Part shown: positions 15,185 through 55,500 of the stretch, in pieces | Layout of the letters: each line of letters begins with the position of its first letter | Position numbering within the stretch: position 1 is the first letter of the stretch | NCBI GenBank assembly: GCA_905178155.1 | Contig: CAJINV010000002.1 | Location: 10,524,709-10,588,708, forward strand | DNA length: 64,000 nt | DNA from: Amoebophrya sp. A120 | Taxonomy: Eukaryota; Protista; Dinoflagellata | Reading direction: 5' to 3' | The notes under the pieces: generated by a model | What the model was told of the DNA's origin: nothing | The model's input: the letters and a program-made list of their open reading frames with translations, nothing else | Database searches by the model: none | Translations under genes and position numbers: made by a program

Positions 15185-17992
15185 CTACTCCACTTTATAC
15201 CAATGATTTCCAGAACAACAGCAGGTGACTCTAGTTCTCGAGCTCGTTTGCCCAAGTGTCCTTCTTTGAAGCAGTGTAGCTTCTTGACCATTGCGATCAC
15301 GTATTATAACGAAGAAGTACTGGTGCAAAAGCAGCGAAGTGGGTACATCAGAAGTAGTAGTGATTCCCAGCAAGTAGGGGAGAAAAATTTTATGGTTATT
15401 CCAAGTCTTTCCCACGAGCGCCTTCCATGTATTCCAACCTCTTTCCCGCACCAGCAAGCAGCATGGTCTGTTCGTCCTGCATGCTGTACCCCGCGCTGCT
15501 GCGAGGCTCCTGCTTGTTGCCTCCCTCCTCTGTCCCTGATTGCACTGCGAAGTTATCAACATGCAAACAAGCGCTTCAGCCCCAGACTTGGTACTGCCTA
15601 GTTTGTATCTGCATATGTACAAACGCAGTCCCTTTCTGCTGGCAGAGCACTTTTCAATTTGATAGGAGGTCGAGGCACTCCTGAGAACCTCCTTTTCGAG
15701 CTCCTCTAAGGTTTTCCCGGCAGTTTCCGAAAGGTAGAGGTAAATCAGCATCCCACCAACGAGCGCCACCCCGCCGAAGATACCAAACACGCCCCCCAAC
15801 CCGATCTCCTTCTCTAGTGGCAGAAACAGGGTGGTGACCAGACTGGTGCACAAAATGTTGACCAAAAACGCCTGGCCCGAGCACAGGGCGCGCACCGACG
15901 TGGGATACACTTCGGCGTTGTATACCCAGCACAACGGCGAAAGCCCGTATCCAAAAGCAAACAGGTATAGCTGGTTTTTTTTATTTGTACTTGCATCAAC
16001 AAACTATGCGACAGAGCCAAAGTAGAGCGAGGGCTCAAGACTACACAACAACTGGTACAAAATCAATGACTGCGGAACAAAAAATGGTGATCAGAACTAG
16101 TGCCGGTGTGCTCAGGAGTAGCTAGTCGAAGGGGAAGAACCCGACCCCGCTACGTAGCCGAAGTGAATAAAAAGTAGTGTATGAGTCCGTAAAAAGTAAG
16201 GTACCAGCAACGAGGAGATGGCGAGCATTCGGTAGTCTTCGGGCTCTCCCACCGAGGTGGCTATGCCTAGCACCATAAGAGACAGAAACACCAGGGCGCA
16301 GGATCGAAGTGCTATCTGGCGGCGCCCACCGGCAGAATCGATTTCGACCACAGCCAGCACAACGCCGCCGGCCTGGGTCACCGTGAGTGCGACGGTGGCC
16401 CAGATGGCCGTGCGGAGGCTAAAGCCCATCTCCTGAACGATGGTCGCGCCGAATAGCATGACCGTGTTGATGCCCGTCAATTGATTCATCACCGTGAGAC
16501 CGAGACCCGACTTCATCGCGGTGCGAAGCCGTTTGTAACCGGGCAGGGTCCAGAACCGGTACAGTGTCAAGACCGGGTGTTCCCGCGGGCCGCTGGCCGC
16601 CAGCTCAACCTCGCTCCGACCGCTGTCCACTTGTGGTGCCCCGAGAGGTTTTTTCGGCGTCAATATCACCGACCCTTGTGGATGTGGAGCCACCTCGCTG
16701 TCCTCATCCTTTTCGGCAAGAGCAGCTGCCTCGTGATCCCTGGACGCTCCTTCGCGTTTGTGATTGCTCTGTTGCCTCCGTTTGCTTAACCCCCCTGGCG
16801 TTCCGTTCTGCTCCGCGATTCTTTCTGACCGCGACCCTCCGTGCAGCAGGTACGCTCGCTCCTCGGCCTGCGCCGTGTGGATTGCCGCCAGCTCTCTGTC
16901 GTCGCCAAACAGCATCACGAGACTCCGCTTCGCTTCTTCGATGTTGCCCTGTAGCACCAACATGCGGGGCGACTCCGGAATAAAACCGAGGAAGATCAGG
17001 AGCAGGCAAACCACCGCGGGCGCGACGATAAAAGCGTAGGAGCACCGCCACGAGAGGTCGTGGTTATCGCGAAAAACCTCTTGAAGCACCGCGTTTACCA
17101 GGGCGGCGAGAATTTGCCCCACGACTATGAACAGATCCAGGTTAGCGATGGTGGAGCCCCGAGAGCTTGCGGGCGCACACTCAGACAGGTGCATCGGCAG
17201 AACGACGAAGATCAGGCCCGCGCCCACCCCGACAACCGCTCGGCCGACGATCAACGCTTCGAAATGGACCGCGATCACGCACAAAATCGTGCCGCTAATG
17301 TGCAACAGCATCCCCAGACAGAGAACTGGCCGGCGACCTGCAACGTCGTGGAAGATACTGTTATAAATTTAGCAGAGAAATGTTTTGGGGATTGATGGCA
17401 CTGGTCCTGGTGCATTTGCAAAACCCAAATCGCATTAGATTTTGACTTTCGGTCTGGCAGGTGGACGCCTGTCATTAGACCGCCTCGAGCGAAAGAAGCG
17501 CAGAGAAGCATACACAGGTCAAAGTAAAAAATCTTCAAAGAAAAGGAGCACAGCTAGAGCTAAGCCGGAAGGGAAGGCAGTTCTGGTTCTTGCGGGCTTA
17601 ATGTTGGACAAACCCTGATTAAAAATACCCCAATTCTGTAGGGTCGTGCTGAGGAGCATGGCGAAGGCCGACAGCATGGCGCAGATAGTTGTCGCGGCAA
17701 CCACCGCTGTCCTTTGAAAGGTGTCATCCTGCTTTGAAAATTTCAGCGATTCCGCCATGAAGTCGATCGTTCCGCTTACCACTGCCGTATCGTAGCCAGC
17801 CATGGCGGTTCCCGCACAGCCCACCGCAATCAAGTAGCGCTTGGTCAGGGTGGGAGGTGGGGGAACCAATGTACCTCCTGCAGAACCACCGACAGGGGCT
17901 CCTACATTCCCTTTTCTCCGTGCTGCAGGAGACCCGGCGGCCCCGACTGGGGCCAACTTTTCTTCATGGTACATTTCGTCCTGAGTCAGCAT
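15185..17992 (-). CDS. MFS sugar/inositol transporter; exons 17992-17629, 17337-16205, 15970-15185 (3' end uncertain)
   Basis: GYDTAVVSG, GRR, GRAVVGVGAG, LSECAPASSRG, PESPR, NQLTGINTV, WVYNAEVYPTSVR, ETAGKTLEE. GT-AG introns 17628-17338 and 16204-15971 join in frame. Confidence 0.92.
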
Positions 17993-19917: not shown

Positions 19918-20761
19918 TCACAGTAATAGCACTCGAAAAATCAAAATGTTTGTCGCTATTGAAAATTCCTTTGAAGAACAGGTTACCTTTGCTTCTGCGC
20001 GCGTGCGGAACGCCGACGCAAATTCGTCTTCTCCGGGCCGTCTACGCGTACCCGCAGGCACCAGCGATCGTCCGTCATATGAACATCCACAAAGTCGAGG
20101 ACTCAAACACGCGACCAGCATACCACCCCGCTATGCAGATACATATGATGCAGGTATGAAAGTGAAAAGACGGCTCCCAGGATCCCAAACCAATTGGTAT
20201 TTTAAACACATTCTAAAATCCCAGAGGGAAGCGTGTATGAATCTGGCCTTTTGCAGCGGCATATGTCTTCAAAAATGCATCTTCCAATTCGGATTTGGGC
20301 TGCTGGGCACTGTCACCATCTTGGTAGCTTGGGGCAGTCAGCAAGCTTTCTCGCGGCACTTTCGTCTCTGGTAATACCGGACTGCTAATTACTGTTCGTA
20401 TTTAATTTTTTGTTTGAGCGCATGCTTGAAAATGAACAGCCTCGACTCTGGTCCACCAGGCCGGCCAAAGAAAACAAGTAGGCACTATGCATCTATGCGT
20501 CCAATTTCTTCGTGTACTACATTAGATTTAAAATTCGGCAAAATGTGTGTACAGACAGGACTTACCTCTTCGCGGGAGTTCGGGTATCCTTTTGCTGGCG
20601 GTAGCCGGGCAGTTTTCCATGTCGACGACGGAAAAGTAGAAGCACAGGAAAAACGACAAGATAGCCGAGAGGTGGGTACAGCAGACCAACAGACTCGCGT
20701 GCGACTTCACGTGCTGCAACGCGCCAGCCATGGCGACGTCTTGGCGGGAAACTTTATCCAA
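19918..20761 (-). CDS. Possible small multi-exon hypothetical gene (model unresolved)
   Basis: Short minus-strand ORFs ending in donor-like sites (AG/GTAAGT near 20565, AG/GTAACC near 19985). No recognisable domain. Confidence 0.25.
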
Positions 20762-22032: not shown

Positions 22033-24334
22033 TCATGCATCCGTGCCTTGTTTTGCGTTCTCTGCACCGAGCGCTAAGAACTTCTCCTCCTGCTCCATAA
22101 TGAACTGGAAGATTTTCTTGGCTAGCTCGGGTTGGTCCGAGTTCTTGTCTGGATGCCACTTCAACTTCAAAAACTTCATGGTTTTCTTCCGGCTATCCAT
22201 CGCCTCCGTCTTCTGTCTCCGAAAGTCCTGCGCGATGCTCGTGGTGATCCGCAGCACCTCCTCACCCTCGTTCGCCTCGGCCAGAAATTCTGTATCTGGG
22301 TCAATCGTCTCGCTGTTTGACCGCTTCCGCCCGTACGCCTTCCGCGCCCCCTTCGCGTTCCAAGCATTCGCGTTGAATTTCGGCCCGCCCTGCTCTTCCG
22401 CAGAGGACGACCTGCGGTTTTTCTCCGCGTTCATCCGCTGTCGGCCTCTGTCAGCACTGCTGTCGTCTTGCGTCGTTCGCTTTTGCTTCTTCTCCTCGTT
22501 TTCTTGCACCTTCCGCGCATGCTCCTTCGCCCGTCGCTCTTCAAATTCTTTCTCTCTGCGTTTTGCTATATCCTGCACAAAAGTATTGCAATCCAACATG
22601 ATCATAGCGCCACAATTGCGATATACTGCACTAGGCTAGTCTTCCCGTTTACAGTATTAATCATCATGCACTTTTTTTCGTCCTTGTTGACATCAGATGA
22701 ATGCGGTTGCTGTGTAATCCTCGATGGATCGATACTTTTGCAATGCATATCGAAGCTCCTCAAAGGATTCCTTGTCACGGTACGTCGCTCGTTCCTGCTT
22801 CGCACCACCGTTGATTAGATCATCTACCGGATCCTCAGGGGGAATCGTCGCGTTAGTCTCCCCCTTGCGGTACTTGTTCTTCGCTGTTGATTCTTCCTGG
22901 AAGGTCCCCGCAGGCGTGACCACCTTTCCATACGGCCGCTCCGCTTGTCGGCTTTGTTGTGCATCCCGGGCCATCCACAGCTTCCTGGCGAGGTATGCCA
23001 CCGCGGCGAGGCCAACGAAGACGAGGATGACGATCAGCGCGATCATGCCGCCGTCGCCGTCGTCTTCGTCGTCGGCTTCAGTGGCAGGGATTCCCCCGGC
23101 TGTTGGCGCGGGCGTCTTGGCCGTCGGCGTGCTGCCAGTGCCAGTGCCAGTGCCGGTAGTCGCTGTCGCCGCTGTTGTGAAGGTCAGCGTGATGTCGCTG
23201 GCCGGGGGATCGCCGCTTAGGTCCTGTACATCCATACGGTTCACTTCGAATCGGTATTGCGTGCTCGGCAACAAGGCACTGCTCAACGTCCACCAAATCA
23301 CAGTGATCACCCCGCCACCAATCCCGACACGGTTAGACATCGTATTGGTCAACGACTCGCTTTGCACCACCGAGTTTGCGAGGTAGAGTCGGGCAAAACC
23401 GCCAGTTGCCGTCACGCGCTCGTTGAAGGAGACTCGTATGACTAGACCAGTGTTTTGCACGTTGGTCGGATTAGCTGGATCGGGATTGGTCACTGTCCAG
23501 GTCGGTGCGTTGTTACCCACTGTTGGCGTTGGAGTTGGTGTGGGAGATGGCGCTCCTGTTGGAAAAATAAAATGAGCATTAACAGAGCAATGTGTTCATG
23601 GGATCATGGACCCTTTCGCTGCACCCACGCACAGTAATCGTGTGCAGTACGAAAGTGCAGTAATCCTCAGAACCACCTTCAAGCCGCGCATGAATCGCCA
23701 CACAATCACAAACCAAAACCGAGCCCTTGTTTTTCATGTTCATGTCTACGAAGGTAGCGCAAAACACATTAGGCACACCTGGTGATGGCGTCGGTGTGGG
23801 GCTAGGCACCGGAGCAGGAGCTCCACCTCCTACGACGAACTGTTTTGCCGTTTGGTACGTGGAATGGGTCGTAAAAGTGCCATGCGTCTTCCATTCCCCG
23901 CCATCTGCGTAGTTCAGGTGGTATCCCGAGGTGCACACGGTGTTTATCTGCGAAAAGCCCGAATCCACGCAAATATTGTTGTTCAGCTTCACGCAGTTGA
24001 TTTCTAAAGCCGAGGACAGCGTGACGCCAAAGTAAGAATTCGCAGCAGTGTATGGGCCACGGACAGTCGTTGCCTGAGACTCCACGGGGTCCTGCTGAGT
24101 GAGCTGCCCATTAAAGTCCACTTCCGTCATCGGATTGCTGGCCTGCGAGGCGTCGTAAACGGAGCTACTGCAGGCCGTGTCGGTGTACATTGCGAATTGG
24201 CAAAACTTCCACTCCGTCCCGGCAGGATTCAAACACACAAAACGCCACAGCCGTGCGGGGGCGGCGAGTACAGGGCCGGGCAATGCGAGCGAGACCAGAG
24301 CAGGTATGACCACGAACAGCATAGAGATAGGCAT
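22033..24334 (-). CDS. Type I membrane protein: signal peptide, Cys-containing ectodomain, PT linker, Ig-like (Big_5/SbsA-like) domain, TM helix, C-terminal J-domain; exons 24334-23779, 23555-22720, 22572-22033
   Basis: Signal MPISMLFVVIPALVSLALP. Ig-like PTWTVTNP...IRVSFNERV...LLPSTQYRFEV...VQDLSG...LTFTT. TM IALIVILVFVGLAAVAYLA. J-domain LKWHPDKN. One GT-AG intron and one inferred GA-AG intron. Confidence 0.7.
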
Positions 24335-34628: not shown

Positions 34629-37463
34629 TCAGGCGTCGGCGCCCGAGCTCGCTGCGGCAGCCGCTTTGGACCAGCGATAGTCACGCCACGCGAGGTACTG
34701 TATGTTATCCAAGCGGTCGGGATCCTTGACCTGGATCCACAGGAGCAGGAGCACCACGAAGAAGCAAATCCCCCCGCACGCGATGAAGGTTCCTCCGATG
34801 ATGACGTTTTTGCTGCCCACCCAGTGTGCGGTTGTCAGCACGACGCGCTTCTTGATATCATGCTCATTCCCGGCCTGCTTTTTCAGATCCAACCGGTGGG
34901 CATAGAAGATGCGGAGCTGTGTGCCCTTCGGGATAGTACTGGTTGGCAGCGTAATCTTGCTATTCAGCTTGCGAAACTGCCAGTAACCCGCGATCCTGAA
35001 GGTAAACATGTTGTTCCCAGTGGTCGTCACCAGCATTTCATTCGTTTCAACATCAAGTATCTATCATCCTGATTAAAGTCCTCCAGCTAATGTTATTTTT
35101 GTGTTCGGATATAACACCAGCTTAGAATCGCGTGCTAGAGGAACTGACTACACCAGTAAGGTCTGGCACGTGCTTCTAACGCTCCGATTATAGTGCTGTA
35201 TGCAGTGATCGCAAAATTTCCTGCAGCCTCAAATTCAACTACATTCCCTGTCTACTTTCCCGCACAACAACATGATGAAAGAAAACAGTGCATACCTCTG
35301 CCAATTGAGCCAGTCCGAGTGCTCCAGCCCCCAGCCAGCGGGGTTCGGGAGCTTTGTGGTGCACGCAATGTTGGTGCCGGGCGTCAGCGGGTTAGGCACA
35401 CTGGTGGTGCTGTACTGGCAGGTCGCGCCGTTCGTTGCTGCCTCAAACTGGAAGTCCTTGTAGTTTGCGCAGTTCGGCGTTTTGTTGTCTGCCAGGTACT
35501 GCAGGGGCTGCAGCCGGAGCGGGTCGTCACTACAGACCGTGGGCGGGAAGTGGCGGAGCAGGTGCATGTCCAGAATCTTGTAGAACTCCTTGCCGTCCAA
35601 GTTGTTCACCAGGTCGAGCCCCGACAGGTCCTTGTCCTCGACCTGGTCCTTGGCCTTGTCGAATACCCGTTCCGGGTCGAGATTCCGCTTGGCGTAGGAA
35701 AAATCCGCGTCAAACGCGACGGTTTCCGGCTTGGCGTCCGCCGTGCCGAGCGGGACACTGTTCCCCGCCACGGAGGCGTCCGGGACGGTCAGAACCATGG
35801 TGTCGAGCCCGTCCTCGGTTGCCATCTTGGCCGCGATATGGATGCGTCAGGTTTGAAATCGTCAAAGTTGAAATAGATTTGTAATGCATAAAATGGATAC
35901 CAGTTGTAACACAGTTTCTAAGTGGCGCATGACAAATTTGGGTAGAGCCGAGACCCAGTTTGTCATGCTGTTTGGGTAAGGAAGACGCGTTTTGTCATGC
36001 TATTTTAGCAGCTTAGTTGCTACCCCTATACAGGCTTACAATCTGCCTCACTTGCCTACTCTGCAAGACAAGCACTTTGTGGGCTGCATTTTATGCATGG
36101 CAAATCATTTCAACTTTGACGATTTCAATTCTGACACGCCCATACGCGAACCCGCAGGGGTAGTACACGCGGTTGTCGGTGACCGGCGGCGGCCATTGCC
36201 CGCTCGGCCCGGACTTGCACACGCTGCTCTCGTCGTTGTTGCCGTCCTTGATGCACTGCTTCGACAAGCTGCTCCACCACATGTAGCACCCGCTGGAGTC
36301 CTTGGACAGCTCAAACGGGTACCACAGCGCGTACGCAGCGGACTCCCACGACTCGGTGCCCAGCATGAACACGGCGTTGGATTCTGCGACGCAATCCGTC
36401 CGCGGTTTCTGGTACGCCATGCAAGATCCCGTCCGCACTTGCTTCGCGGACATCGCGTTCTCGGACCCACGTATAAAGCCCCTGTGTCCCTGGTAAACGC
36501 CATCGAGCTCGTAATACCTGTTCAGTGTTGTATATTTGTTCACATGATCACACGTCTTCCGGGTTGAGCTCGCTGCTTGTGCTTCTTCTTTCCGGTGTGA
36601 ACTAGTCATGCGTGCTCAACATCCTGATCTGACAATTTCGATCTGTCGCTTTCGGTTAGTCTAGCTACAGTGCCACCTTGTGTTGACTTCGTTTCCGCAT
36701 TTTTGACGATCATATAGAAATCTCGACTATTTCAGTAGTACTCAACCAGCGGTTCATTACAGTAGCAGCGGGCCCTCCATATCTTCCGTGGTCGTGAAGG
36801 TGATGCTTTCGAGCATCCTGGCTGTGCCCAAGGTGGCGGAGGTGCTGTCTACGCACGTCCGCTGAACATTTTCGGCACCGTCCACCGTGGTCTCGACGTC
36901 GTTATTGCCGTAGTCGTCACACCCAATATTGGGCTTTAGCTCGATGGAAATCTCGGTTATTCCCGCGGCGCCAGAGAAGTAAAGGGAGCCGAAAATCAGC
37001 ATCGTCAGTGTGTAGAAAACGAAAATGACCAGCAGCGTCTTGGGGGTGCACAGCGGGGCCCAGTTCCAGGGTTGCGCCTTACCTTTTTCCGAGAGTTTTT
37101 TGGTGGAAACCTTGCCCATACCCTCGGCAAGGATCACGCTCGCCGTTTTGCTCTTGCGCCCGTTCTATCAACTGTAAAAGTGTCTGGGTCTGGAAGAATT
37201 CATGTTTGTCATGCTTGTCTGGCATGACTCTTACATCTGTCATGCACGTTACCCAAGAGCTCCGTTTTTCTGTGATGCAGAAGCGCGGTTTGTCATGCAG
37301 AATAGGCAACACCTAGGAGCTCAGAAACTTGTCATGCTGAGCCAGCATTTGTAGCCTCATCATGAGACGCCACCCAGCATCACAAGTTTCCAGACCCAGA
37401 CATTTTTACTTTTGATACGTTCAAGACGGCGGAGCTCGGGATGGAAGACGAAGCGGATGCCAT
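34629..37463 (-). CDS. CDC50/LEM3 family (P4-ATPase flippase beta subunit); 5 exons, two introns are introners
   Basis: N-terminal TM, MEGPLLLYYELDGVYQGHR, YYPCGFAAKM, WLNWQRIAGYWQFRKL, KRVVLTTAHWVGSKN plus TM. Introns 37418-37165 (or 37162), 36760-36518, 36145-35833, 35295-34996. Confidence 0.92.
35837..36144. mobile_element. Introner/MITE-like element 2 (308 bp), about 55-bp imperfect TIR, 5-bp direct repeat CGCGA
   Basis: Left TATGGATGCGTCAGGTTTGAAATCGTCAAAGTTGAAAT; right end reverse-complemented TATGGGCGTGTCAGAATTGAAATCGTCAAAGTTGAAAT. CGCGA at 35832-35836 and 36145-36149. Confidence 0.92.
37166..37417. mobile_element. Introner/MITE-like element 3 (252 bp, family A), 30-bp TIR, 5-bp direct repeat CGTTC
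   Basis: TATCAACTGTAAAAGTGTCTGGGTCTGGAA ... TTCCAGACCCAGACATTTTTACTTTTGATA. CGTTC at 37161-37165 and 37418-37422. Homologous to 53020-53270. Confidence 0.95.
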
Positions 37464-39171
37464 TTTCGTGGGGACCCCCTGGTCCTTGTCACACGTCACG
37501 GATTCCGCTGGAACAACCTGCATGAAAGAGCATAAAATGGTTGCAGGTCAAGATGTTGTAAAATAAAAATTTTCCCTCTACTAAACCGATTCGCTTCATC
37601 AGATGGCTGCACTACACTGGTACAAAAGCAATGGGATAAAAATTGTGTTTAGAACAGGGAGGTACTGTACGGCGGCCGTGCGACAGGTCGCGGAATCGGA
37701 ACGTTGTGGTGACTCCAGCTATCCAACAAAAAAAGTGCGCCAATGCACTTCAATGTAAAAGTAAACGTGTCGTGAAGAAGATGCATTAGACGCTCACTCT
37801 CAGTGTGAGGGATATATGTCCCGTACTATTGTTTCCGCATCACAAGTTTTCTGTAGTACGGGTTATATGCTCGTTGTACATACAAGCGTGTGCAGTAGCG
37901 CACTCTTTTCCTTGGATACTCTCTCGTCTCCGAGTAGCAGCAATCTGCTGCTGCAGTTCTTGCCCGAGAAAAGAACCGGGTGAACAAGCTCGTCCACAGG
38001 AAGAACCGAGGCAGTGGCAGCTTTCTCAGCACCGGTAATTCTGTCAGATTTTTCCAGCTCCGCGCAGTGTAGTCGACCCATCCGAACGGGTGGAATTACA
38101 AGATAGCAGCTGGACGGAGCCCTGCCCAAATCTCCGACGCGCTGCAACGACAGCAGCTACACCGATGACACACGAAGATTCTTGCAATGTCATCATTATG
38201 AAAATCGTATCCAAATCGTGAACCTCTATTGGCACAAAAATGGAGACTTCCTTCACATATTTCTTATTCATTCCGAAAAAAAAACTGCAGATAATACGAA
38301 GAATGTCGGCACCTTAGAACCACTCTATTCTGAATGTGCTGCGGCAGAGACTACAGACGCAGACACTCGCTTCTATTCAGAAAAACAGATGAAAAAAGGC
38401 CTTGCACGTGAAACGCAAAGGCACGTCCCTGCTCATCTCACACAAAAACGACAGACCAAACGAATCAAATGCGTCGTGGAGTCAACGAAAACCAAAAAAA
38501 AAGCAACAACGCATTAATAAATAAGCATGCGCGCAATTGCGCTGGTGATAGCGCCACACATACTGCTTTGTGCGTTTGGACACACTAGACACCAGTGGGG
38601 TAAACGCAAACCTATGTGTAATCACCCATGCGATAATAAAAAAACACAATACTACACTGCAGCGAGATGAAGGTCAGGAGGGTGGATCGCGATCGCCTCC
38701 CCTTCATTTAATGGAGAATAAGAGCATCTTGAAAAATAAGGCACCGCGCAGTTGTTTCCTTGAGTTCGTTCCGGTTCGAGATAAGAAGTTGTTGGTCTGA
38801 TACAATTTTATGTACCGCGATCGTAGGTGTATTAAGCACTTTTCCTCGGTGTAGTCGATACAGGTCTATCTGTGCTCCCTCTCTTCAGCGTGGAAAATGT
38901 AATAAATCGGTATGATGACGATTCCATCTATCATAAAGAATGACATACCGTGACCATTTCCATGATTATTATTTCGAAATTCTCCAAAATCTATTGTCCA
39001 TATTTATTAGATGACCTTTAGCCATCTGCTTCTCCGCGGCAGTGATGCCAAGAAACTACATGGTTTCGCTTTTCAATGTTCCACACTTGTGTAAGTAAAG
39101 TATTTCTTGAACCGCACGCATGATACCGAACAAGGAAGTACATTTCTGCACGTCGTCTACTTGATCTTTTT

Positions 39172-41567
39172 TCACTTTGCCTTCCGCACGTTGAGCATAC
39201 TCCCACTGAGACCCGCGTCTCCGATGGTCGTGTCCAGTCCGATGTCCTTCCTGGCGGACTTTGGTGGCATTGCAGTGAAGAGGTCCACGCTCTCGATTCC
39301 CATTTTAGAAAGATGCGCGGCGGCCTGCAATGCGTGCGACACCGGATCCGTTTTCAAAAACAGCACGGGGTCGGACCGCTTGCCGTCCAATAGGCGGAAG
39401 GACATTTTTGCCAACGTGGCCGGATCCGTGCCCGCCGCCGGGGCGGGTGGCATCGCGGGTACATCTTCCTCCGCTGCGGCCGCTTGCTCTGCTGTGGTCT
39501 CGCCGGTGGAGCCGAATGCCGCGGTGCTGCTACTCGCCCCCGTTTCGCCGCCCTGCGTGAGACCCCCGGCGGACCGCGGCCTCTTGCTCATCGGCTCGTC
39601 CCCGTGCGCCGGCCGGGAGCCCCCGCTAGTACCACCGGTCAGGTCAATGGTCCCGCCCCCGCTCGCGGCAGCCAGGTCGCCGGTCCCGTTTGCACCGGAC
39701 GTAGAGGTCGCGCCTGTCGCGGAAGAGGAGGAAGAAACCGCCCGGGAGCTGGAGCCCGGCTGCTGCGGCCTCAGCTTGTCGGCATGTTTCTCAAGGAAGG
39801 CAGTGATCTTCTCCATCGCCACCACAGACGAGTTCTTCGGGTTGTGCGGGTCCATCCACTTTTTGCCCTCCCAGAACTCCACGGCCATTCGCGTGCGCGG
39901 ATCCACAAAACAAATGTACGGCAGCGATTTCACGTTGTAGTACCTGAGATGAGTAAGAGTCGATTTCAAAAAATTGCAGACGAAAACGTAGTTACGACGC
40001 GGTCTATAATCTCTATGAATGTAGACAACTACGCGACCTCGTTTGTTCGTTACAGCTACGACTGCGCACGAGCATATGGTGCAAAAGGATGAGGATAAAG
40101 AGGGAGGAAGATGACTTTTAACAAAGTGCAGAAATACTGCGAGAAAGTGCTCCCCTGTTCGGACACGTCATCGCGCTGCCAGAAGACGAAATTCGATGTC
40201 ACCGTATCCTTCACAAGTTCGTGAAAATATCACGAAGAAAAGCGCCAGCGCATTCATGGAACTAATCAATGCGGTACAAATGAAAAACCCACTTGGAAAT
40301 TTTGGCACGCAAGACCGTAGCATGTTACTTCTGTTCATGTCGTGATTAGTATCTTTTGTGTATTGGTTTTTAGTTTCACATTGCAAATAGGTTGAATGCA
40401 CGCTTTTTTTCTCTATGATAGGTTCCAAACGTCTCGATTCAACTGGCTACTGGGAAATTCCTGGTCCTGAATGTTCACCAGAATATACTTGTTCTCCTCC
40501 ATAGCGCGCGTGTGCGCGATCGCAAATGCCCCGGACTGTAATGGTATTGAATTAAATGCCTTTATTTCATACAATATAGATGTCGACCGTTGCAGTGGTC
40601 ACACAGAAAATAAAACGTCGAGTAGTTGAGCTACTGCTTCAATATCTAGGTGACAGCGGTAATCTTTCCACCGCCACCGGATGAACCAAAGATGCAACTA
40701 TAAGCACAAATACAACAAACCTCGTTGTAATCAGGCACTTGGAATATCTTGTTGAGATGCTTCACTCTGTCGTTCGCTTCAGTCGCGGCTCCCTGTTTTT
40801 TATCCTTGCTTGCATCCCACCACGCGGACCGCTGCAGGTACTTTCTGTGATCTTCCTGCAGCTGCTTTTCTTGCGCTCTGTTAGTGGAAATGAAATTTTT
40901 AGGTGTCGATGTTGACACAGTAAAGATACAGGTGTATCTTGCCGACGTGTAAAAACACAAACTAGTAGTGTGATCTAGCCCACTTCTCCACGACGCCGTC
41001 ATCAATGGGGACAGGGCGCAGTAGAAGTACTGCTTCCTTGTCATCGAACAAAACATGAAATCAAATAGGATCTTTTTCTTTTATACTTTTTCTCGCTTGC
41101 CGACGGGCCCTGAATCATTTGGTCATCAAAGGCCGCGATGGCAGCGCGGACCTCTTCATCGATGGGCGCCGCGCCCGTGTCGCCGCCGCCCGGCGGAGGC
41201 CGCCCGCTCCCGTCCGGCCCGGCGCCGCCGGTGGATGCTGCATTGGGCATGTTGTCCAGGTTATCCCAGAGAAAAAAGCTGGCAGGGCATATTTGTAATG
41301 CAAAAATAGATACACAGAAAAATCTGTCATGGGCGGCCTCCTAGCATGCTGCTTCGGATATGCAGTACAGATTTTTTTGTGTATTTATTTTTGCATCACA
41401 AATATGCCCTGCCAGCTTTTTTCTGTGTGATACAGGTACAGTGCGACGGCGGTCTCCAGATCCCACACCTGTCCGGACATCTCGAGAAAATGCCGCGCTT
41501 GCATCATGTCTTCGCACCCGGTGGTGCTCATGAAGGTCGCGATCGTAAGCTGCTCCTCGTCCGACAT
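39172..41567 (-). CDS. UBX-domain protein (UBA-like + UAS/thioredoxin-like + UBX; UBXN7/Ubx5-like p97 adaptor); 6 exons
   Basis: UBA-like ARHFLEMSGQVWDLETAVALYLDN. UAS KYILVNIQDQEFPSSQLNRDVWNHELVKDTVTSNFVFWQ...LPYICFVDPRT. UBX MSFRLLDGKR...LFTAMPPK...TIGDAGLSGS. The ORF is open upstream to 42509, so the start is uncertain. Confidence 0.9.
40228..40420. mobile_element. Degenerate introner element 4 (193 bp), TATCA...TGATA termini, direct repeat decayed
   Basis: Left TATCACGAAGAAAAGCGCCAGCGCATTCA; right end reverse-complemented TATCATAGAGAAAAAAAGCGTGCATTCA. Flanks GAAAA and GGTTC. Interrupts the conserved UAS motif with an in-frame TAG. Confidence 0.75.
41262..41432. mobile_element. Introner/MITE-like element 5 (171 bp), about 66-bp TIR, 5-bp direct repeat CAGGT
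   Basis: TATCCCAGAGAAAAAAGCTGGCAGGGCATATTTGTAATGCAAAAATAGATACACAGAAAAATCTGT and its near-perfect inverse. CAGGT at 41257-41261 and 41433-41437. Confidence 0.95.
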
Positions 41568-44463
41568 GTTGACTCCTGCTTGTTCTTGCACTTCTTCTTG
41601 CACCGGGGGTACTTCTGCGTGTGGCGTTTCTGGTGCAACAGGAAAAACCCTCGACGACAGGCGCTGCGTAGTTACATGAGCCGACGTCGGCCGCGAAATA
41701 GGATTGAAAACCCTGCTGCTCTCGCGCACCGCTGGGCCACCTGAAGGGCCTCTGGCTACCTCGTTGAAATCCTCCTGGTTGGAGCTGCTTTTGCTGGCGG
41801 CTGCGGCTCCCCCACCTTGCAAGAAATGCGCGGGTGAAACAGAGGTACTAATACGTTCTTGCGGTGTGGACGTGCTCCGGATCTTGTCAGGACTGGTGCT
41901 AGAGATCGAAAGTGCTGACGCAAACAGGAACGGCGACGTGCTTGGGAAAGGGAATGTAGATGTTGGCGAACTAGAATTAGATCTCAAAAAGTCGTAGTTT
42001 TGGTTTTCCTCTGTGTCTGGTGGTTTCGTCAAAAAATACAACGCTGCGTCCTCTCGTGCTGCTGTTCGTGGAGAGCTCGTGATCAAAAAGGAACGTTTTT
42101 CGAGGAAAGCTATGTTGTTCAGAACTGCCAAAAAGAACGCGATCAATTCAAAAACGGCGAGAGCTAAAAAAATTTGGTCCAAAAAAAGCGGCTTTGGAAA
42201 ATGCGCTTTCGATTTGGATGATGAGAAAAGCCAGCGACAAAGTTTGCTGGACTTTGCAATGAGTCGACTACGCTTCTCGTGGAGATGTTTATTGTGCTTT
42301 TTGTCAAAAGGAGGGCTTTCTTTGCTGGAACTTCTACTTCTCAGACACGAGCTTTGCAATTGTTGAAAAAAAAGCTTGCTAAATTTCTGCGTCTTGTTTT
42401 CTTTGTCGGCATAATTCTCCAAGAAGGCGATCAGGTCTTGACAAGAGGAATCGATGAACTGCGAAAAACTTGAAAAATTGCGGTCCATTGATTTCTTTTT
42501 CGATCCCATCTTGCCAGATTGAGATTCTGCGTTCGTTCTTTCTAACGTTCACAAAATAGTTATCCAAAGATAGAGCTTGATGCTTGTTTTCTCCTTAGCG
42601 GACGTATATCAGTTATGGTTTTGTCTTTCCAAAAATCATATAAACATAAGTACGCTTGGCTTCGTTTGGATTCACTTTCAGTTGCTAAATCCAGTCAGCG
42701 TCAATTGGAGCGATCTTCCTTTTCTTTCTCGATTCCAAAAAAGGCTTGTTAGTTTTGGTCTTCGTTGCTACTACAGGAAGAACTATTTTTTATGTTGTAG
42801 CCTTGTTCTAATCCTAGGCCTCGGTGTAAAAAATCAGTGTTCCAAGAAAATACAAATAGAGTGCTGACGATTATAATTCGAAAAGCTTGAGAAGTGTGGA
42901 CGATATTAGGCTATCGCCTCTTTTTCTTAGCTAACACTTATAATGTCGGTATCGGCTGCGAGTATTGATTTTTGATGATTCGCAATCGGTTGATGGATGA
43001 TGTTTCAGAGATAGAATTAGCACAACATCTACATCCCAGCGTTAACGTCGCCTGTCCTAGCTCCCTTGTAGAAGTAGATTTTGAACTTTTCAAGCGTAAT
43101 TAGTTATGATTACTCTTACTTTTTACACCTAGTAGTAGTACTGACATCCATTTCCATGCTAGTAATGCCAGAGGACATAATATCTTGGTTTTGCAACGCA
43201 ATACTGACTACGACCTTGAGGCCACTACTTATCGAGCACTTTCTTGCCACCACGACCTTGGCATTGCTACGTCACTTGGCCTGAAATCATCAGGCAGTGA
43301 AGAAAGGAATAATGACGTTTTTGATCCGATGTTTTGCTCGCTCTTTTCCATCCAAAAAAAAAATCATGATCATGCATCATTATCATCTCTCCCGTGCGAA
43401 AAAAAAAAACGAGCTCAGCTCTGTGGTCGTGTTGTACTTGGGAGATCCAAAATCGTTGGTTCATGAGGAAGCCAGGTCGCGCTTGATCTCGCCTTTCATC
43501 ACTGGCAGCCACGCAAAGATGCTTCCCGAACAACGTCCCTGGCGACGCGTGATACGGATCGCGTACCATTTAATGCGTTGCTAGCGTCGCGAACGCACCT
43601 GGTGGAGCGCATGGCGTGAAGTCCGGAGATGGCAGCCAGTGGCATTTCCCGTAAAAAAACGTTCGATTTTAGCAAACAAACCTGTAATCCGTTATTCGAC
43701 GCATGTGAAGACCACGGCCAGAACGCCGGTTGCTCCTCTGTCACGACTTTGATTTCTCTGCAACTCGGTTCAGTACATTTACAGCCACAGGATTTATCGA
43801 AGCTGAAGACGCAGATCGATGCGGATCTGAAAACTACAAAAGAGGTGCTGCTAAAAGGTGCTCGAACAAATGTACACCACGGCAAGGATTGATAAATACT
43901 GATGCCCTCGTCGGCTAAAAAAAGTATTCACGAACCAGGTGGACTCCCATCCATGTAATAGATAAATGTCTTTTTTAGGTTGACACTGGCTCTGCATTGA
44001 TTAGGTTGATCTTGATTATAAGTCTCGTGGATACAAAAAAAGGTAGCAACAAAAATAAGCACTGTCATTGAAGCAAATTCTATCTTTCAGATTGAGTGAC
44101 CGAGACACAAAAAATGATGCAGCAGACACACAAGTGCGCGCCAAATACGCTTAAGTGTGCCAATGTCAATGCGAGACAGCACGAAGCTCAAATTAGTAGC
44201 TATAAAACATTCGCAAACAAATCGATACTACTTACAGAGCAAAGATTATCAATCAATCTATACTCTGCAGGTGCGAGTATGAAGACGAACTTTACCTCCC
44301 AGCTCACGTAGCGAGATGGAATACGTTTTTCGTCTCAGGTTGAAAAAACGAAGCAAAACCGGTCCCGAAAATCTTCATCAGTATCTATTCTCACAAGCGT
44401 CTACTCTTCTGCGCAAAAACAGCTGCAGGAAGTTGCTTTTCCTTCACATAGGTAAATCCCGAA

Positions 44464-47400
44464 CTACTGATCGTCTGCTCTTGCAGGTGCTTCCCTGTGT
44501 TCGGAGGAAGTCGAAGTTGCTGATACTGTGCTGGTGGGAGGTGTGATGAAGTCCAAGATAACAGAGTCTCGCACCCACGTGTCGCCCAAGTCCGCCCGGC
44601 GCAGGTTTGGGTGCCGCTCCCGGAACATTTCCTTGAGCAGGGATGCCACCTCGTCCTCCTGGTCAGCCCCAAATCGCGCCAGCTGCTGCTCTGAGGGCTT
44701 GCGGAACCCCTGGAAGGGGTTTGGGGAAACCCGCAGATGCAGCTCCTCGAGGTGCCTGGACACCAGCACTTCGTTGAGGAACTCCAGGGATTTTTCGTAG
44801 TGCCACTGTGTTTGCGCGTCCAGGTCACGAGCGAAGTACATCCGCGACAAAAGCCTGTGGTCCGCAGGTTGCAGCCAATCCGTTTCCTGCACGCCGAGGA
44901 GCTCTAACACCTTCAGCTTCCGCATTTTCGCAAGTCCTGCTGCGAAGTTCCGCGTCCGGCGGCGACGCGTGCACGCCCAAAGATCCAAGTGGAGCCGCAC
45001 TAGTCGGCTCGGGAGCACTAGGAAGTCAAAAACAAAGGGATCTTCCTCTTCCCCGACGTCCAATGTTGCTTGATCCCCTTCCTGCTCCCGTCGTTCAAGA
45101 ACTGCCGTCGCGGTGGTCGCAGTGCCAGTACTGGATGTGACAGCATGATTACTTGCGGAGGCGATGTCGTCGAGGAAAGAAGAAGCGTGAAACTCGTCCC
45201 TACTTTCATTATCCGATGCCTGCTCTTCTTCTGATGCGAAAACCTGCGGGCCGCGACCATCGGCGAGATTCAAAAAATGTGCGCCGGCGTTGTAGAAGGA
45301 CCCGATTTTACCCGAAGGCGCGAGGTAGTTCAGCTGAGTCTCTGGGACGACCAAGAGACGATCTTCATCAGCATCCCGAGGACCGCATGCGTCATGGACG
45401 CGTAGGTCTTGTTCCTCAAGCAAACGAAGGCCGTGGTCCTCCACCTCCTCCACGGCTGGGACGTTTATTGTGTTCGGGTCTTGCCACATGTGCGTCAACA
45501 ACGGGCTGTTCGGCGAAAAATCCGTACGCAGTGTCGGACCCATCTCCTCCCGGCGTGCATCACTGCTTAAAGAGCCCGTAATGCTGACACGAAGTTCGCT
45601 CAGGTGCGCAAACGATTTCAAAAACCGCAGCGAGTAGTCATCAACCGTGTGCAGGTGCAGGGTGACCAAATTCGGCATTCTTTCCGAGTTCACAAAGCCT
45701 TCCGCGCCCGAGTTGGTCGAAAACTTCAGGAAGTTCAGGTGTGGCAACTCGACTTTGTGTAGAGCGGATACGAGAGTTGCAACAGATCGTCTTGTAGAAG
45801 TACCACAACCACGACCTACTGCCGAACTATAAACGGGCCCTTCGAAGCGGAGCTTCGCCCTTTCGAGCGGGATGGGCCTCATGCCCATGCGCTGGATGCT
45901 GACCAGAAAAATTTCCAGGTGTTCCAGTTGCGGCGGAAAAAGTTGCTGCAGCCGGTCCGGGAGGAACCGCGGGTTACTGTTCAAGCTTTGGAGCAGTTCC
46001 TGGTGATGATGTTTCTCTCTTTCATTCGAAGCTGAGGACGAGATGACATCGTCGTTCATCATACCCCCTGCCCTCCTTTCCCGGGGAACTTCAACTTTTC
46101 CAGCTGCAGCATCACGCGAAGAAAACAACAGACCAACATTCTTCAGACTGAGCTTCTGCAGCTTGGGAAAAAGCAGTGTCGGAAAGAAGCCGCTACGCTT
46201 ACTCGCGTCGCTTGGGACGACATGATCGTGACCTCCACCAGCCTCGATTTTGGGTAGAATCGCAGTACAGTGTACTAGCGTCAAACGTCTCAGGTTCGGC
46301 AAAAGCGATGCCACAAAGTCCAATTCCACTTCTGCGTCCGCAAAGGGACCCACCCAATCTTGGCAGTTTATGTACAACTCGATGACGTGCCGCGGCACGC
46401 GCTCGTACAGGAAACGGGACAGAGACGTGGGGCACCGTGCGCGCGCCAGCACGCTGGCGTAGTCGTGCCGGTGCCATTGGAAGCAAGAATCCGCGCAGCT
46501 CAGTCGGGGGAAAACGTCGTCCTCGTTGAAAAAGTATCCTGTGCAAAAGTATCGTACTCGTATTGTAATCATGCATTACAAATCCTGTTCTTAACGCAAA
46601 TTAGCATTACAAATCTTATTTTTCATGCTGAGGAAATTTGTAATGCATTTATACGAGTATGTACGATACTTTTGCAATTCATAAAAAGCTGTGCCTATTC
46701 TCCCACTGCTGGTGGACTTTCGAGGTCGATGCTTTACCGAAGGAGCTCTCGGCACTGCTGTTCAGGTTGTGTTCTTTCTCCTCGAGTCGGCTGTACTGCA
46801 CATCGGCCGTGCTGGCGTCGTTTGACGAACACGCTTCTGTACCTTGATCATCCTCGCAGGCGTGGCCCGAAACTGCACAATTACTGCATACTTCTCGACC
46901 TTCTGGTTGGCTGACCGGTGCAGCCGATGAGGAAGAAGACGCTCCACTTGTCGTCGCAAATGTTGAGCCCCCCCGACAGCGGGATTTAGAGCCGCATCGA
47001 GTGCAGCGCTGCTGCGCGGAATCGCAACCATCGGCACATGAGAGATGCGAAGACAACGTGCTTGCCTTGGATGCAGTGCGCTTCATCCCTGCGGGACGAG
47101 TGCTGAATATGGCTTTCAACATCGACGGGCTTCGGGCGCCCCAGAAAATCCGCACGGACTGCGCCGCGTCGTCCAAATAACATTTTACCTTCGGACAGCT
47201 GGCGCGCAAGCGGTTCCGGTAGTGTTCGTTCGTATCCGACACCGAGCACGTATCGGAAAAAAACCCTTGCTCGCGTACGACACCCAGCGCAGATGCGAAC
47301 AGCAGGCGCTGTTGCGATGATGTTTTCGTTTCTTCATTGTCAGGCTCTACCGCAGCTGTGCGTTCGTTCCGCACGGGAGTTGAAAGCGGTAAACTGCCCC

Positions 47401-52513: not shown

Positions 52514-55500
52514 TTACACGTCTGCGGGAGAAACGTTCTTCGTGACCACCACCGGCGCAGAAGTAATGACGACTTTCTGGGGCCCCGGCGGCATGCTTGC
52601 CGCACCGTAGTTGTTGTACATGCCCTCGGGGCCAAACCCCTGGTCGTCTTCGAAATAGGGCTCGGGATCTTCCGCGACATGTCGGTTCTGCCGGATCACG
52701 TAAGAAACCCCAATCGCACAGCAGCAGACGCAGCAACACAAAATCAGGGGTAGAACCACGTACACAACCAGCCACTTGCCGCAAATCTGCAGGGTAGTAG
52801 ATTTGAATTTGGTTCTGATCCAGAACGATGCTTCCGCGAAATTGAAATATCTTTGCACAGGCGTGTCACGCTTTCGGAACCGGATGTCTTTCTAGAATAA
52901 AGCCACAAAATAACAATACCGTCTGGTCCGAGAGCTGGATTTGTTGTCGGCAACCCTGGACGTTGGCATCGGTCAACGCCGCTGTGGTGGTGCCGCCGCC
53001 CCGGGATTCGTCGCCCTTGTATCAATTGTAAAAATGTCTGGGTCTGGAAGAATGCAAGTTTGTCATGCTTGTCTGGCATGACTTGAGAATCTGTGTTGCA
53101 TAGGCACGAAAAGGCCCTCTGAACTGTCATGCAAAAACGCAGTTTGCCATGCGGAATACGTAAGACATGGGAGCCAAAAAACTTATCATGCATAGCTGCG
53201 TATTGCAGTCCGTCTACCATTCACTTTTAGCATCACAAGTTTCCAGACCCAGACATTTTTGCATTTGATACCTTGAACCAGTCAACGATCAAGACGGTTG
53301 GTCGTCTCTGCACCGCTAGCACGTCCTCAAGTGCTTCTGTTGTGACTCGTTTTCGGAAACTGGTGAAGTCTTCGCCCTTTACTTTTTCGGTGCGACGCCG
53401 GCGGGCCACGTTTACGGACGTCGGTCGAAAGGCAGAGTGCACGAACGCGCTGGAAGATGCGTCCTCGCCACCTCCCACTTCTTTCGAGTCAAGACGACCC
53501 GCCAAAGACGTCGCAGTGGTTCTCCGACCGCCGGTCTTTCTGCGGCCTGGCTGGGTTGCATTCGCTTGGTTCAGCGCGCCCCGAAGCACCGCGTCCTGTC
53601 CCTGGTCGATTTGGCCAATCATGTACGCATCTCCCGAGGACAATAAATCGTATTCGAAAATGGGCACCGTGATCATATTTTCGACTGTATTTCCACGATG
53701 AAACACTGTGCCACCGATTTTCACGAGCTCCCCGCCTGCATCTGTGTACGGGTTGTAACCCGGGTGTGCATTTGCGTTCTGCGCCAGAGTGATGGGCGCG
53801 TGCGCCCGCATGCATTCGCCAAGCATCCCCGCGTTCTCGCTGATCCGTGTCCCGCGCATGAGCGCCCCGCCCGTCTGCTCTTTCAGGTACAGCTGGTGCG
53901 TTTGCGGATCGTGAGCCCAAAAGGCGACGCGCTCACAGCCCACAAGCTCCTTCGCCACCGAACAGATGACCGGTAGAATGTCATCGTGATATGCTCTACC
54001 CTCGTGCGTGGTCACTTCCTCTAGCGCGTGGATCATGGCAAAGGTCACGCCCTCCAACACGCGTTTGGCTCTCCGCGCGTTCCAGGCATCCCACTCCTGC
54101 GACAGACTTTTGGTCATGGCCCACAAGGAATCCACGCAACGGTCGACGTCAATCTCCAGTTCCTTCATTCGCTCGCGAGACGACAACGCCGAAGTTCTTG
54201 GATCTACTGATGTAGCTGCGTCACCGAGGAATTTTCTTGCGTACGCCTCGAGCGACAAGCCGTCAGTTGTAGATATCACTACCATGCCCATGGCGGCCAA
54301 ACTGGTGAACGCCTTGCGTGCGGGTGGCGTCTTCAAGGGAAAGGCCATCCGTGTGGACTCCAATACGGGCTCGTTAGCGGCCAGCGCTTGCAGGCCAAAC
54401 TGAAACCACGGATCGTTCGCCGCCGTGCAGAGCATGCGATCGCTTTGGGATATCCGTCGCGGTTCCGCTGCCTTCGGTGCGGCCAAAACCCCGGACTTAC
54501 GGGTGGTCACGGACTGTCCGCTAAAGTAGTCCCGAAAGTCGAAGGTGTCTCTGCTGCCCACCATGCGAAGCGTGGTGCGGACCAGCAATCTCCGCTTCTG
54601 CACCTGGTCCCAGGCCTTCTGCAGACCTCTCTGCCCTCGGGGCGAGCGTTGACTCGTCGTATCACGGGCGGTCGGCTCGGCGGAGCTTTCCTGGCGCTCT
54701 AGTTCAGTGGTACCCGCAGACGAGCGCGTTCCATCGTGGGATTCCGATCGAAGACGCGCGGCGGCCACCACGGACGCCCGATACACTGCCGTATGCAGCA
54801 TATCAATGCCGGCCAGCCGGTCCTTGTCCTTGGCGTGCGACAGCATGGCTTCGGAGCTTCTCTTCACGTCCGCTCTATTCGTATTATCTGTAGCAGCGAC
54901 CTCTTCATCGGCGTAGTAATGGAAGTCGTCGTGCTGCTCCCTTAGCGCTGGCGCGTCAGCAGCCTCGTGGAGCCGCGCCGAGTGGGCCCGAATGGTCAAC
55001 GGATCGAATCGCAACGCCTTGTTCGGAAGATAATGCTGCACCGCGTCCGCAAGCACATTCTGCACATTTCCAGCTGATTCACCCGCTCGTGAGTAAAACC
55101 TTCGGCGTTCCTCCCGGTTCAGCGCCCGGGCGTAACGACAGATTGGGTCCGCCTCGTGCAAAATTTTCGCCGTGTGCCAGGCATGCGCCGCGCGTGCGTC
55201 CAACTGGATTACGTGGTCTACAGCGGAGGTGGCTGAATTTTTGCTACTTCTCGAACTGGGCTGGAAGAGCATTCGCCGCTTGTTTTCCGCGTTTTTGGAA
55301 AACCTCGGCTCATTTGTTCCACCAAATCCCAGCACTTGCTGGCGGTGCCGCTCCAAGCGCTCGTCTTCGGAAGCAATCTCAGCCGATATGGCTTTCGCGT
55401 AGTTCTGCTGGTTACCCTGAGCATTGATGCGCGAAGCGCTGCTCTGAGCAACTCCACCAGCTGCAGCGACGATGTGACTGGAGGACCCCACCGAATGCCG

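Follow-up and report, generated by a model that had tools for sequence, protein, structure and literature searches.

Introner elements of Amoebophrya sp. A120 were described by Farhat et al. 2021 (PMC7789003), whose passages on introns give them an inverted repeat of 8-20 nt that starts with TAT and carries an A stretch about ten bases in, a hairpin, a direct repeat of 3-5 nt, non-canonical intron ends and no internal transposase. A cognate transposase is reported absent from A120 in the same paper, and parts of PMC12130899 report TIR elements with integrase-like ORFs. The genome paper states that the removal of the two thirds of Amoebophrya introns without GT-AG is open, and that intron borders could not be placed because the direct repeats hide them. 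Comparable arrangements have been described in other lineages. According to the sections of PMC9860276 and PMC11282704 that treat them, the MITE-like introners of Micromonas, Aureococcus, Symbiodinium and Florenciella also combine TIRs with a target duplication, lose one duplication length with the mRNA restored, and draw their splice sites partly from the duplication. The non-canonical introns of Fritillaria borealis, as summarized in a passage of PMC11282704, are MITE-derived with TIR and TSD as well, and are removed by an adapted U2 spliceosome. Euglenid nonconventional introns and hemistasiid diplonemid noncanonical introns (passages of PMC11282704 and PMC12621601) likewise have paired ends, non-canonical termini, TSD-like repeats and set stem offsets.

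The element studied here lies in A120 DNA, in a stretch of 64,000 nucleotides (the window) whose exons match the A120 models P0001 and P0007. Its body (40228..40420, minus strand) is a single-copy sequence of 193 nt running TAT...ATA, as judged from sequence, DNA depth and a family search. The host gene, GSA120T00020177001 (P0001, 791 aa; 39172..42509, minus strand, from the A120 gene model and contig joints), has six exons mapped to 42509-39175, separated by three GT-AG introns and two element introns. The exon just downstream of the element matched one protein, P0001 itself, at 99% over 82 residues, and the P0001 model already has the element spliced out, reading RDVWNHELVKD at this place. 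Pfam assigns to P0001 a UBA-like domain and a thioredoxin-like domain (Thioredoxin_7, residues 475-550), the latter spanning the junction 40222->40421; a UBX domain had no Pfam match at E 0.001, and "UAS motif" is the label that the initial annotation put on this stretch. Across positions 1-64000 the minus strand carries the longest open frames and all of the genes checked, a layout that agrees with the co-oriented gene clusters that published passages report for Amoebophrya.

On the sense strand the 5' inverted-repeat arm (40401..40420) begins with TAT followed by an A tract, and the 3' arm (40228..40245) ends with a T tract followed by ATA; 11 of the 14 terminal positions are complementary, making an imperfect inverted repeat. 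The upstream copy of the target duplication is GAACC (40421..40425) and the downstream copy TTTTC (40223..40227), with only the last of five bases in common, just as the initial annotation had described. The decayed copy is real rather than an assembly slip, as a single DNA contig of 3897 nt spans it without other letters or gaps. Translation reveals an in-frame TAG at 40413..40415, at which a protein made from unspliced RNA would end, two residues beyond residue 506. A duplication-blind scan gave the element a score of 23.2, and shuffled sequence gave 0.2 matches of at least 22 per 467 kb. DNA depth over the element is about 30, equal to background, and that over its intact-repeat neighbours reaches thousands; given this depth and the lack of any family match among 329 elements, we consider the element old.

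The element belongs to the published class of A120 introner elements and is ordinary for this genome. It has the organism, the TAT-starting inverted repeat with its A stretch, and a non-canonical intron with RNA support. The direct repeat of 3-5 nt is absent (1/5 bases in common), which we read as decay because 250 of 329 elements have a perfect 5-mer and the other 79 show graded loss. The element also has no repeated family and fits the "singleton IE" class. Passages of PMC7789003 give a repeat of 3-5 nt, whereas the duplication found here is 5 nt long (182 of 276 pairs, below) and this copy is a decayed singleton. As for the properties of MITEs, the class as a whole has TIRs, a duplication of constant length, high copy number and no coding capacity, and this copy departs from them in copy number.

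Evidence for removal comes from contigs of four sequencing runs. In three of three RNA-like runs (X4, X1 and X3, from two samples of one study) a joint 40222->40421 skips 198 nt, and in the one DNA run (X5) the joint is absent and a single contig covers the stretch unchanged. X1, X3 and X4 were taken as RNA by guess, with no RNA label on record, and their contigs drop rare forms; they lack four GT-AG introns and the intergenic DNA, from which we take them to be spliced RNA. Six joints were obtained over 37423-41255. Four are the GT-AG introns; the other two are non-canonical, and each of these falls at an element with decayed repeats. The second non-canonical joint, 37714->37919, removes 204 nt and again has one base that fits either side; it was seen only in X4, and this site lies outside the coverage of X1 and X3. 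A wider contig comparison over 20 kb showed no RNA joints, its signal being dominated by high-copy elements. The junction expected by the initial annotation, with the element plus 5 nt (198 nt) taken out, is thus matched exactly, and the joint places positions 1-4 of the downstream copy in the intron, as it had proposed. Its view that the direct repeat is dispensable for removal is borne out by the same joint, and the second decayed element (37720-37918) behaves alike.

One base at 40222->40421 fits either side, so that the RNA is compatible with an intron at 40224..40421 (CT...TT ends) or at 40223-40420 (TA..TC ends). Neither has the GT/GC donor and AG acceptor of a U2-type intron. The first four bases of GAACC are exonic and the first four of TTTTC intronic. 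The initial annotation had argued that the spacing of the protein motif pins the register; this does not follow, since keeping three, four or five bases of the upstream copy yields identical residues. The RNA narrows these three to registers 4 or 5 (the number of upstream bases kept). The initial annotation had placed the donor at or one nucleotide before TAT and the acceptor 4-5 nt after ATA, two candidates that other elements resolve further.

For those elements we collected 144 loci (L001-L144, 403 kb) from one assembly, JACKZZ01, chosen by the TIR pattern of a single family and hence biased toward element-dense genes and young copies. Four element families are common to JACKZZ01 and the window, at 66-96% identity, and JACKZZ01 exons match A120 proteins at 75-100%, which together make it a close relative of A120. 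Viral contigs gave 0 matches. Among 276 TAT...ATA pairs with strong arms, a perfect 5-mer duplication was present in 182 and any other duplication length in at most 29. The duplication-blind scan returned 354 hits against 2.2 per shuffle, of which 329 were unique. A codon model oriented 251 of the 329 (8 from the window), with within-locus pairs concordant in 317 of 329; the 78 unoriented elements, including 37720 of the window, are omitted from the counts, as is 35837 of the window, which fell below the score threshold. Insertion phase among the oriented elements is uneven (111, 78 and 62 of 251), which may partly reflect the codon model. At one of the loci, a gene for a 357-residue UDP-GlcNAc dehydratase-like protein (P0005; L054:119-5273) is split by about 15 elements, and adjacent elements leave micro-exons of about 8 and 11 nt (L054:1978-1990 and 929-945).

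The initial annotation predicted that mismatches between the two repeat copies would pile up in positions 1-4. They are not confined there: in 62 oriented decayed elements the five positions hold 23, 23, 16, 17 and 21 mismatches, and in the 59 outside the window 21, 21, 14, 14 and 21. A rule that the last duplication base must match, which held in four of four decayed window elements, failed in the larger set and was a small-sample effect. At positions 1-4, mismatches are independent of codon position (30/362 at third positions vs 49/642 at the others), as expected if one copy is intronic. At position 5 they favour third codon positions (12/78 vs 9/173, P = 0.012), a bias not fully explained by a purely intronic, freely drifting copy alone. 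Third-codon sites at positions 1-4 carry no extra mismatches even though the exonic copy should drift there, and constraint on the final four bases of the exon is possible. Drift of decayed copies toward a longer stem was considered and rejected (25 pairs observed, 22 expected).

The remaining tie of one nucleotide can be broken where position 5 differs between the copies and changes the protein. Eleven elements have such a mismatch; A120 proteins were sought for nine of them (L057 and L131 aside), of which three were found and six were not. Against P0003, only four upstream bases fit the element L032:1226-1437, with three giving His and five a stop, and one residue differs between the strains. 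Five upstream bases would place Pro where P0005 has Arg at L054:3511-3813, and Glu where P0006 has Gly at L004:307-658. The fifth base therefore comes from the downstream copy in three of three informative cases, a comparison of a related strain with A120 models; in two of these cases a substitution in the exon between the strains could produce the same picture. The A120 models were built from transcript mapping according to the methods passage of the genome paper. For the L054 exon, an alignment to PDB ended short of the junction. At least four upstream bases are kept in five of five informative elements, namely 40228 and 37720 of the window (RNA), 22569 of the window (P0007), L032:502-653 and L032:1226-1437 (P0003); at 22569 a GA..AG pair lying one base earlier is present and unused. 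Cutting one nucleotide before TAT and four after ATA (-1/+4) is the sole register that fits all seven informative elements. Among the 62 decayed elements this register leaves no stop codon, and registers 0, 1 and 5 leave one each. Independent support comes from Table S4 of PMC7789003, where all predominant non-canonical ends have T at +2, in A120 (NT) as in A25 (TT), and acceptors vary. Taken together, the seven elements make a fixed -1/+4 register very probable. Passages of PMC7789003 see no clear end signature; with the register fixed, the variety of ends would be borrowed target sequence. For the element at 40228-40420 this register would give the CT...TT intron, with the last base of GAACC at intron +1 and the last base of TTTTC in the exon.

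With the borders placed, the end bases can be compared with exon background. G at +1, before TAT, occurs in 60 of 188 intact elements (32%) against 33.3% in same-phase exon sequence, and an acceptor AG in 19 of 188 (10%) against 8.3%; GT-AG ends occur in 7 of 250. Recruitment of a G donor or an AG acceptor from the duplication was thus discarded, and in the relative neither +1 G nor terminal AG is favoured. The initial annotation had linked its register to G-TAT donors of other elements; with G at background this coincidence is due to chance, and the intron 40224-40421 itself starts with CT. In this the A120-type elements differ from the introners of Micromonas, Aureococcus, Symbiodinium and Florenciella, which in the sections of PMC9860276 and PMC11282704 cited above carry or co-opt GY and AG, and from those of Fritillaria, which per PMC11282704 keep preferred termini (AG-AC, AG-AT). 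Where the fifth bases differ, the upstream base at intron +1 is A in 10 of 21 elements and T in one, and A at +1 is slightly raised in intact elements (60/188 vs 25%, P = 0.04), so a weak preference for A is possible. The host gene has three GT-AG introns, of which two (window 41086-40878 and 40137-39944) also begin G-TAT, one of them with an A tract next that resembles an element arm; it may be that part of the canonical introns descend from old elements whose ends drifted to GT-AG.

Signals within the element were sought through strand asymmetry, allowing one change per terminal triplet; the idea of an A at -7 had been recorded before this test. In 248 oriented elements, variants number 1, 2 and 9 at +2, +3 and +4, and 7, 3 and 2 at -5, -6 and -7. 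The U at +2 therefore varies once against seven times for its mirror, the A at -5, and the A at -7 twice (two elements carry a non-A base there) against nine for the U at +4. Combined, +2 and -7 have 3 variants against 16 in their mirrors (P = 0.004; 3 vs 14 and P = 0.013 in a stricter set of 216 from the same data), while -7 against +4 is not significant singly (P 0.065 and 0.29). Pairing predicts more A-to-G changes at -7 than U-to-C changes at +4, and the opposite is observed (1 vs 7). In the element at 40228-40420 the +2 U is supplied by the 5' arm (40420), and the -7 A (40230) would be a candidate branch nucleotide. An A stands at -7 in two of five exactly mapped GT-AG introns. Ab initio GT-AG intron calls were tried as a source for a branch motif and discarded, as they recovered one of four known donors and gave flat profiles.

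The arms of the element are predicted to pair in both MFE and centroid folds (z -2.26; 5 of 200 shuffles as good), and mean mirror pairing is about 0.8 in 40 intact elements. G-U is no commoner than A-C in the arms (146 vs 152), which gives no sign of selection for pairing in the RNA. Across elements, mismatches between the arms peak immediately inward of the TAT/ATA tip, at positions 4-7 (where ends read TATC vs TATG), and pairing is best in the A/T tracts, at positions 11-14; the stem thus has an internal loop close to its base. In sense orientation the two arms are compositional mirror images, which indicates that both orientations are spliced.

The RNA loses this old introner as an intron of 198 bases. 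We think it likely that the cuts fall one base ahead of TAT and four beyond ATA, and that they are made by a modified spliceosome, which would measure from the element ends instead of reading GT-AG. Judging from its anatomy, a MITE-like DNA element would have inserted into the exon and duplicated five bases. The RNA joints show that the element plus five bases is then lost and the frame restored, an intact duplication being unnecessary. From the seven informative elements, the intron would take the form N-UAU...AUA-NNNN, its first base and last four being target sequence, on which drift is unrestrained; the statistics of the relative show that neither a +1 G nor a terminal AG is favoured in them. 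The 5' arm would then give the +2 U, and folding of the arms would draw the two ends close. Distance would define the 3' site, in the simplest case distance from a branch A at -7. We lean toward a modified major spliceosome that uses the +2 U and measures its 3' cut from the element end, perhaps from that A. Against the branch A, it is paired in the predicted stem, and 7 nt would be a short branch distance. Because the ends mirror each other and target letters are irrelevant, an element landing in either orientation almost anywhere would still be removable, which would explain its spread.

A bolder generalization, which we offer tentatively as possible rather than probable, is that the "highly variable" non-canonical introns of A120 all follow the one rule N-UAU...AUA-NNNN. 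A spliceosome lacking U1, a snRNA not detected in the published A120 genome according to its authors' passages, would ignore the first and last bases, read only the palindromic tip (+2 U as donor, -7 A as branch) and find the 3' cut by counting six bases. On this view the end of the transposon would be a self-sufficient, orientation-proof splice signal, and A25, using another element, would have arrived at the +2 U rule too.

Could the gap instead arise by repeat-mediated DNA excision, or by a reverse transcriptase jumping the hairpin? Hairpin-flanked gaps can arise during cDNA synthesis, and the runs showing the joint were only guessed to be RNA, as contigs without rare forms. We regard this as very improbable: the available homology is one base, the DNA contig is uninterrupted, the same contigs lack GT-AG introns and so represent spliced RNA, an in-frame stop lies inside the element, and the cut lies 4 nt past the stem in every informative case. 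The codon-blind decay of positions 1-4 further implies long-term intronic status. No literature on reverse-transcription artefacts of this sort was found. Splicing from both -1/+4 and 0/+5, coupled so that either fifth base reaches the mRNA, is less improbable and still distinctly unlikely. The joint at 40222->40421 cannot separate the two registers, and the third-position excess at position 5 and the shared last base in all four decayed window elements would suit such a mixture. Against it stand the 11 non-synonymous mismatches at position 5, one of which is a stop at 0/+5, a non-synonymous rate there (9/173) not clearly below that at positions 1-4 (49/642), and the three tie-breakers, all of which favour -1/+4.

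The same fixed -1/+4 cuts might also be made outside the spliceosome, by a structure-guided nuclease and ligase that would recognise the terminal hairpin at its base, a mechanism suggested for the nonconventional introns of euglenids; we hold this to be unlikely, though clearly less so than the two readings just weighed. Indifference to +1 and to the acceptor dinucleotide would suit such enzymes, as would a stem whose overhangs are short and unequal, resembling the +4/-6 geometry that part of PMC11282704 gives for euglenids, the undetected U1, and the fact that elements with 3-5 duplication mismatches keep their arms largely complementary (9.3 vs 10.3 of 13). Yet the arms show no excess of G-U over A-C (146 vs 152), the primary sequence carries strand-specific signals, a conserved +2 U and -7 A, that match spliceosome chemistry, and published passages credit A120 with U2, U4, U5, U6 and nearly all spliceosome proteins. 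The euglenid and diplonemid introns have CAG/CTG motifs at +4/-6 and belong to another lineage, whereas A120-type elements have UAU/AUA at +2/-5 (PMC11282704 and PMC12621601, in the passages cited). We prefer the modified spliceosome. The U12 donor consensus is RUAUCCUU, and many element donors, N-UAUC, come close to it. Passages of PMC3584512 describe U12-type introns as similarly tolerant of varied terminal bases, with the 3' site set by distance; the U12 branch distance, however, is 11-13 nt against the 7 proposed here, no conserved U12 branch motif was seen in the elements, and U11, U12, U4atac and U6atac are reported absent in A120. The elements are not assigned to U12 introns.

The value of these observations lies in the rule rather than in the single element at 40228-40420. 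Decayed repeats act as natural markers that give a fixed register and show G and AG to be dispensable, and the +2/-7 asymmetry points to two nucleotides under selection. The rule makes an unexplained splicing process testable in the existence and place of a branch, could correct tens of thousands of intron borders, and would explain insertion in either orientation without visible target preference. It was not found in the literature searched, where figures 3 and S19-S25 of PMC7789003 could bear on it and Roy et al. 2023 and Henriet et al. 2019 are known only as cited.

Ten such elements lie in the window; the 5-nt duplication is perfect in six of them and decayed in the other four. The second decayed intron (37716..37919, 204 nt, minus strand) holds the element 37720-37918 between GAGAG and GCTGG and is given in the same probable -1/+4 register, with which its RNA joint agrees up to the one-base tie. 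The third (22565..22750, minus strand; element 22569-22749, TTCGA / TAGCA) is fitted by the A120 model P0007 in registers 4 or 5 only, and the fourth decayed element (15554..15664, minus strand; CCTCC / ACTTC), found by sequence scan, lies in a sugar-transporter gene. Elements with intact duplications, mostly high-copy with DNA depth in the thousands, include one in the host gene P0001 (41262..41432, minus strand, ACCTG on both sides) and, from sequence, those at 12444-12764, 35837-36144, 37166-37417, 46535-46683 and 53020-53270. Raw RNA runs X8 and X9 gave no coverage of the window exons; 87 reads of X8 match only the TIR at 53020-53051, mostly with one foreign flank, and represent this element family inserted elsewhere, in a different strain or sample. 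A weaker TAT...ATA candidate at 20155-20263 (score 16.5), without a duplication and with no open frame across it, is possibly an element outside coding sequence.
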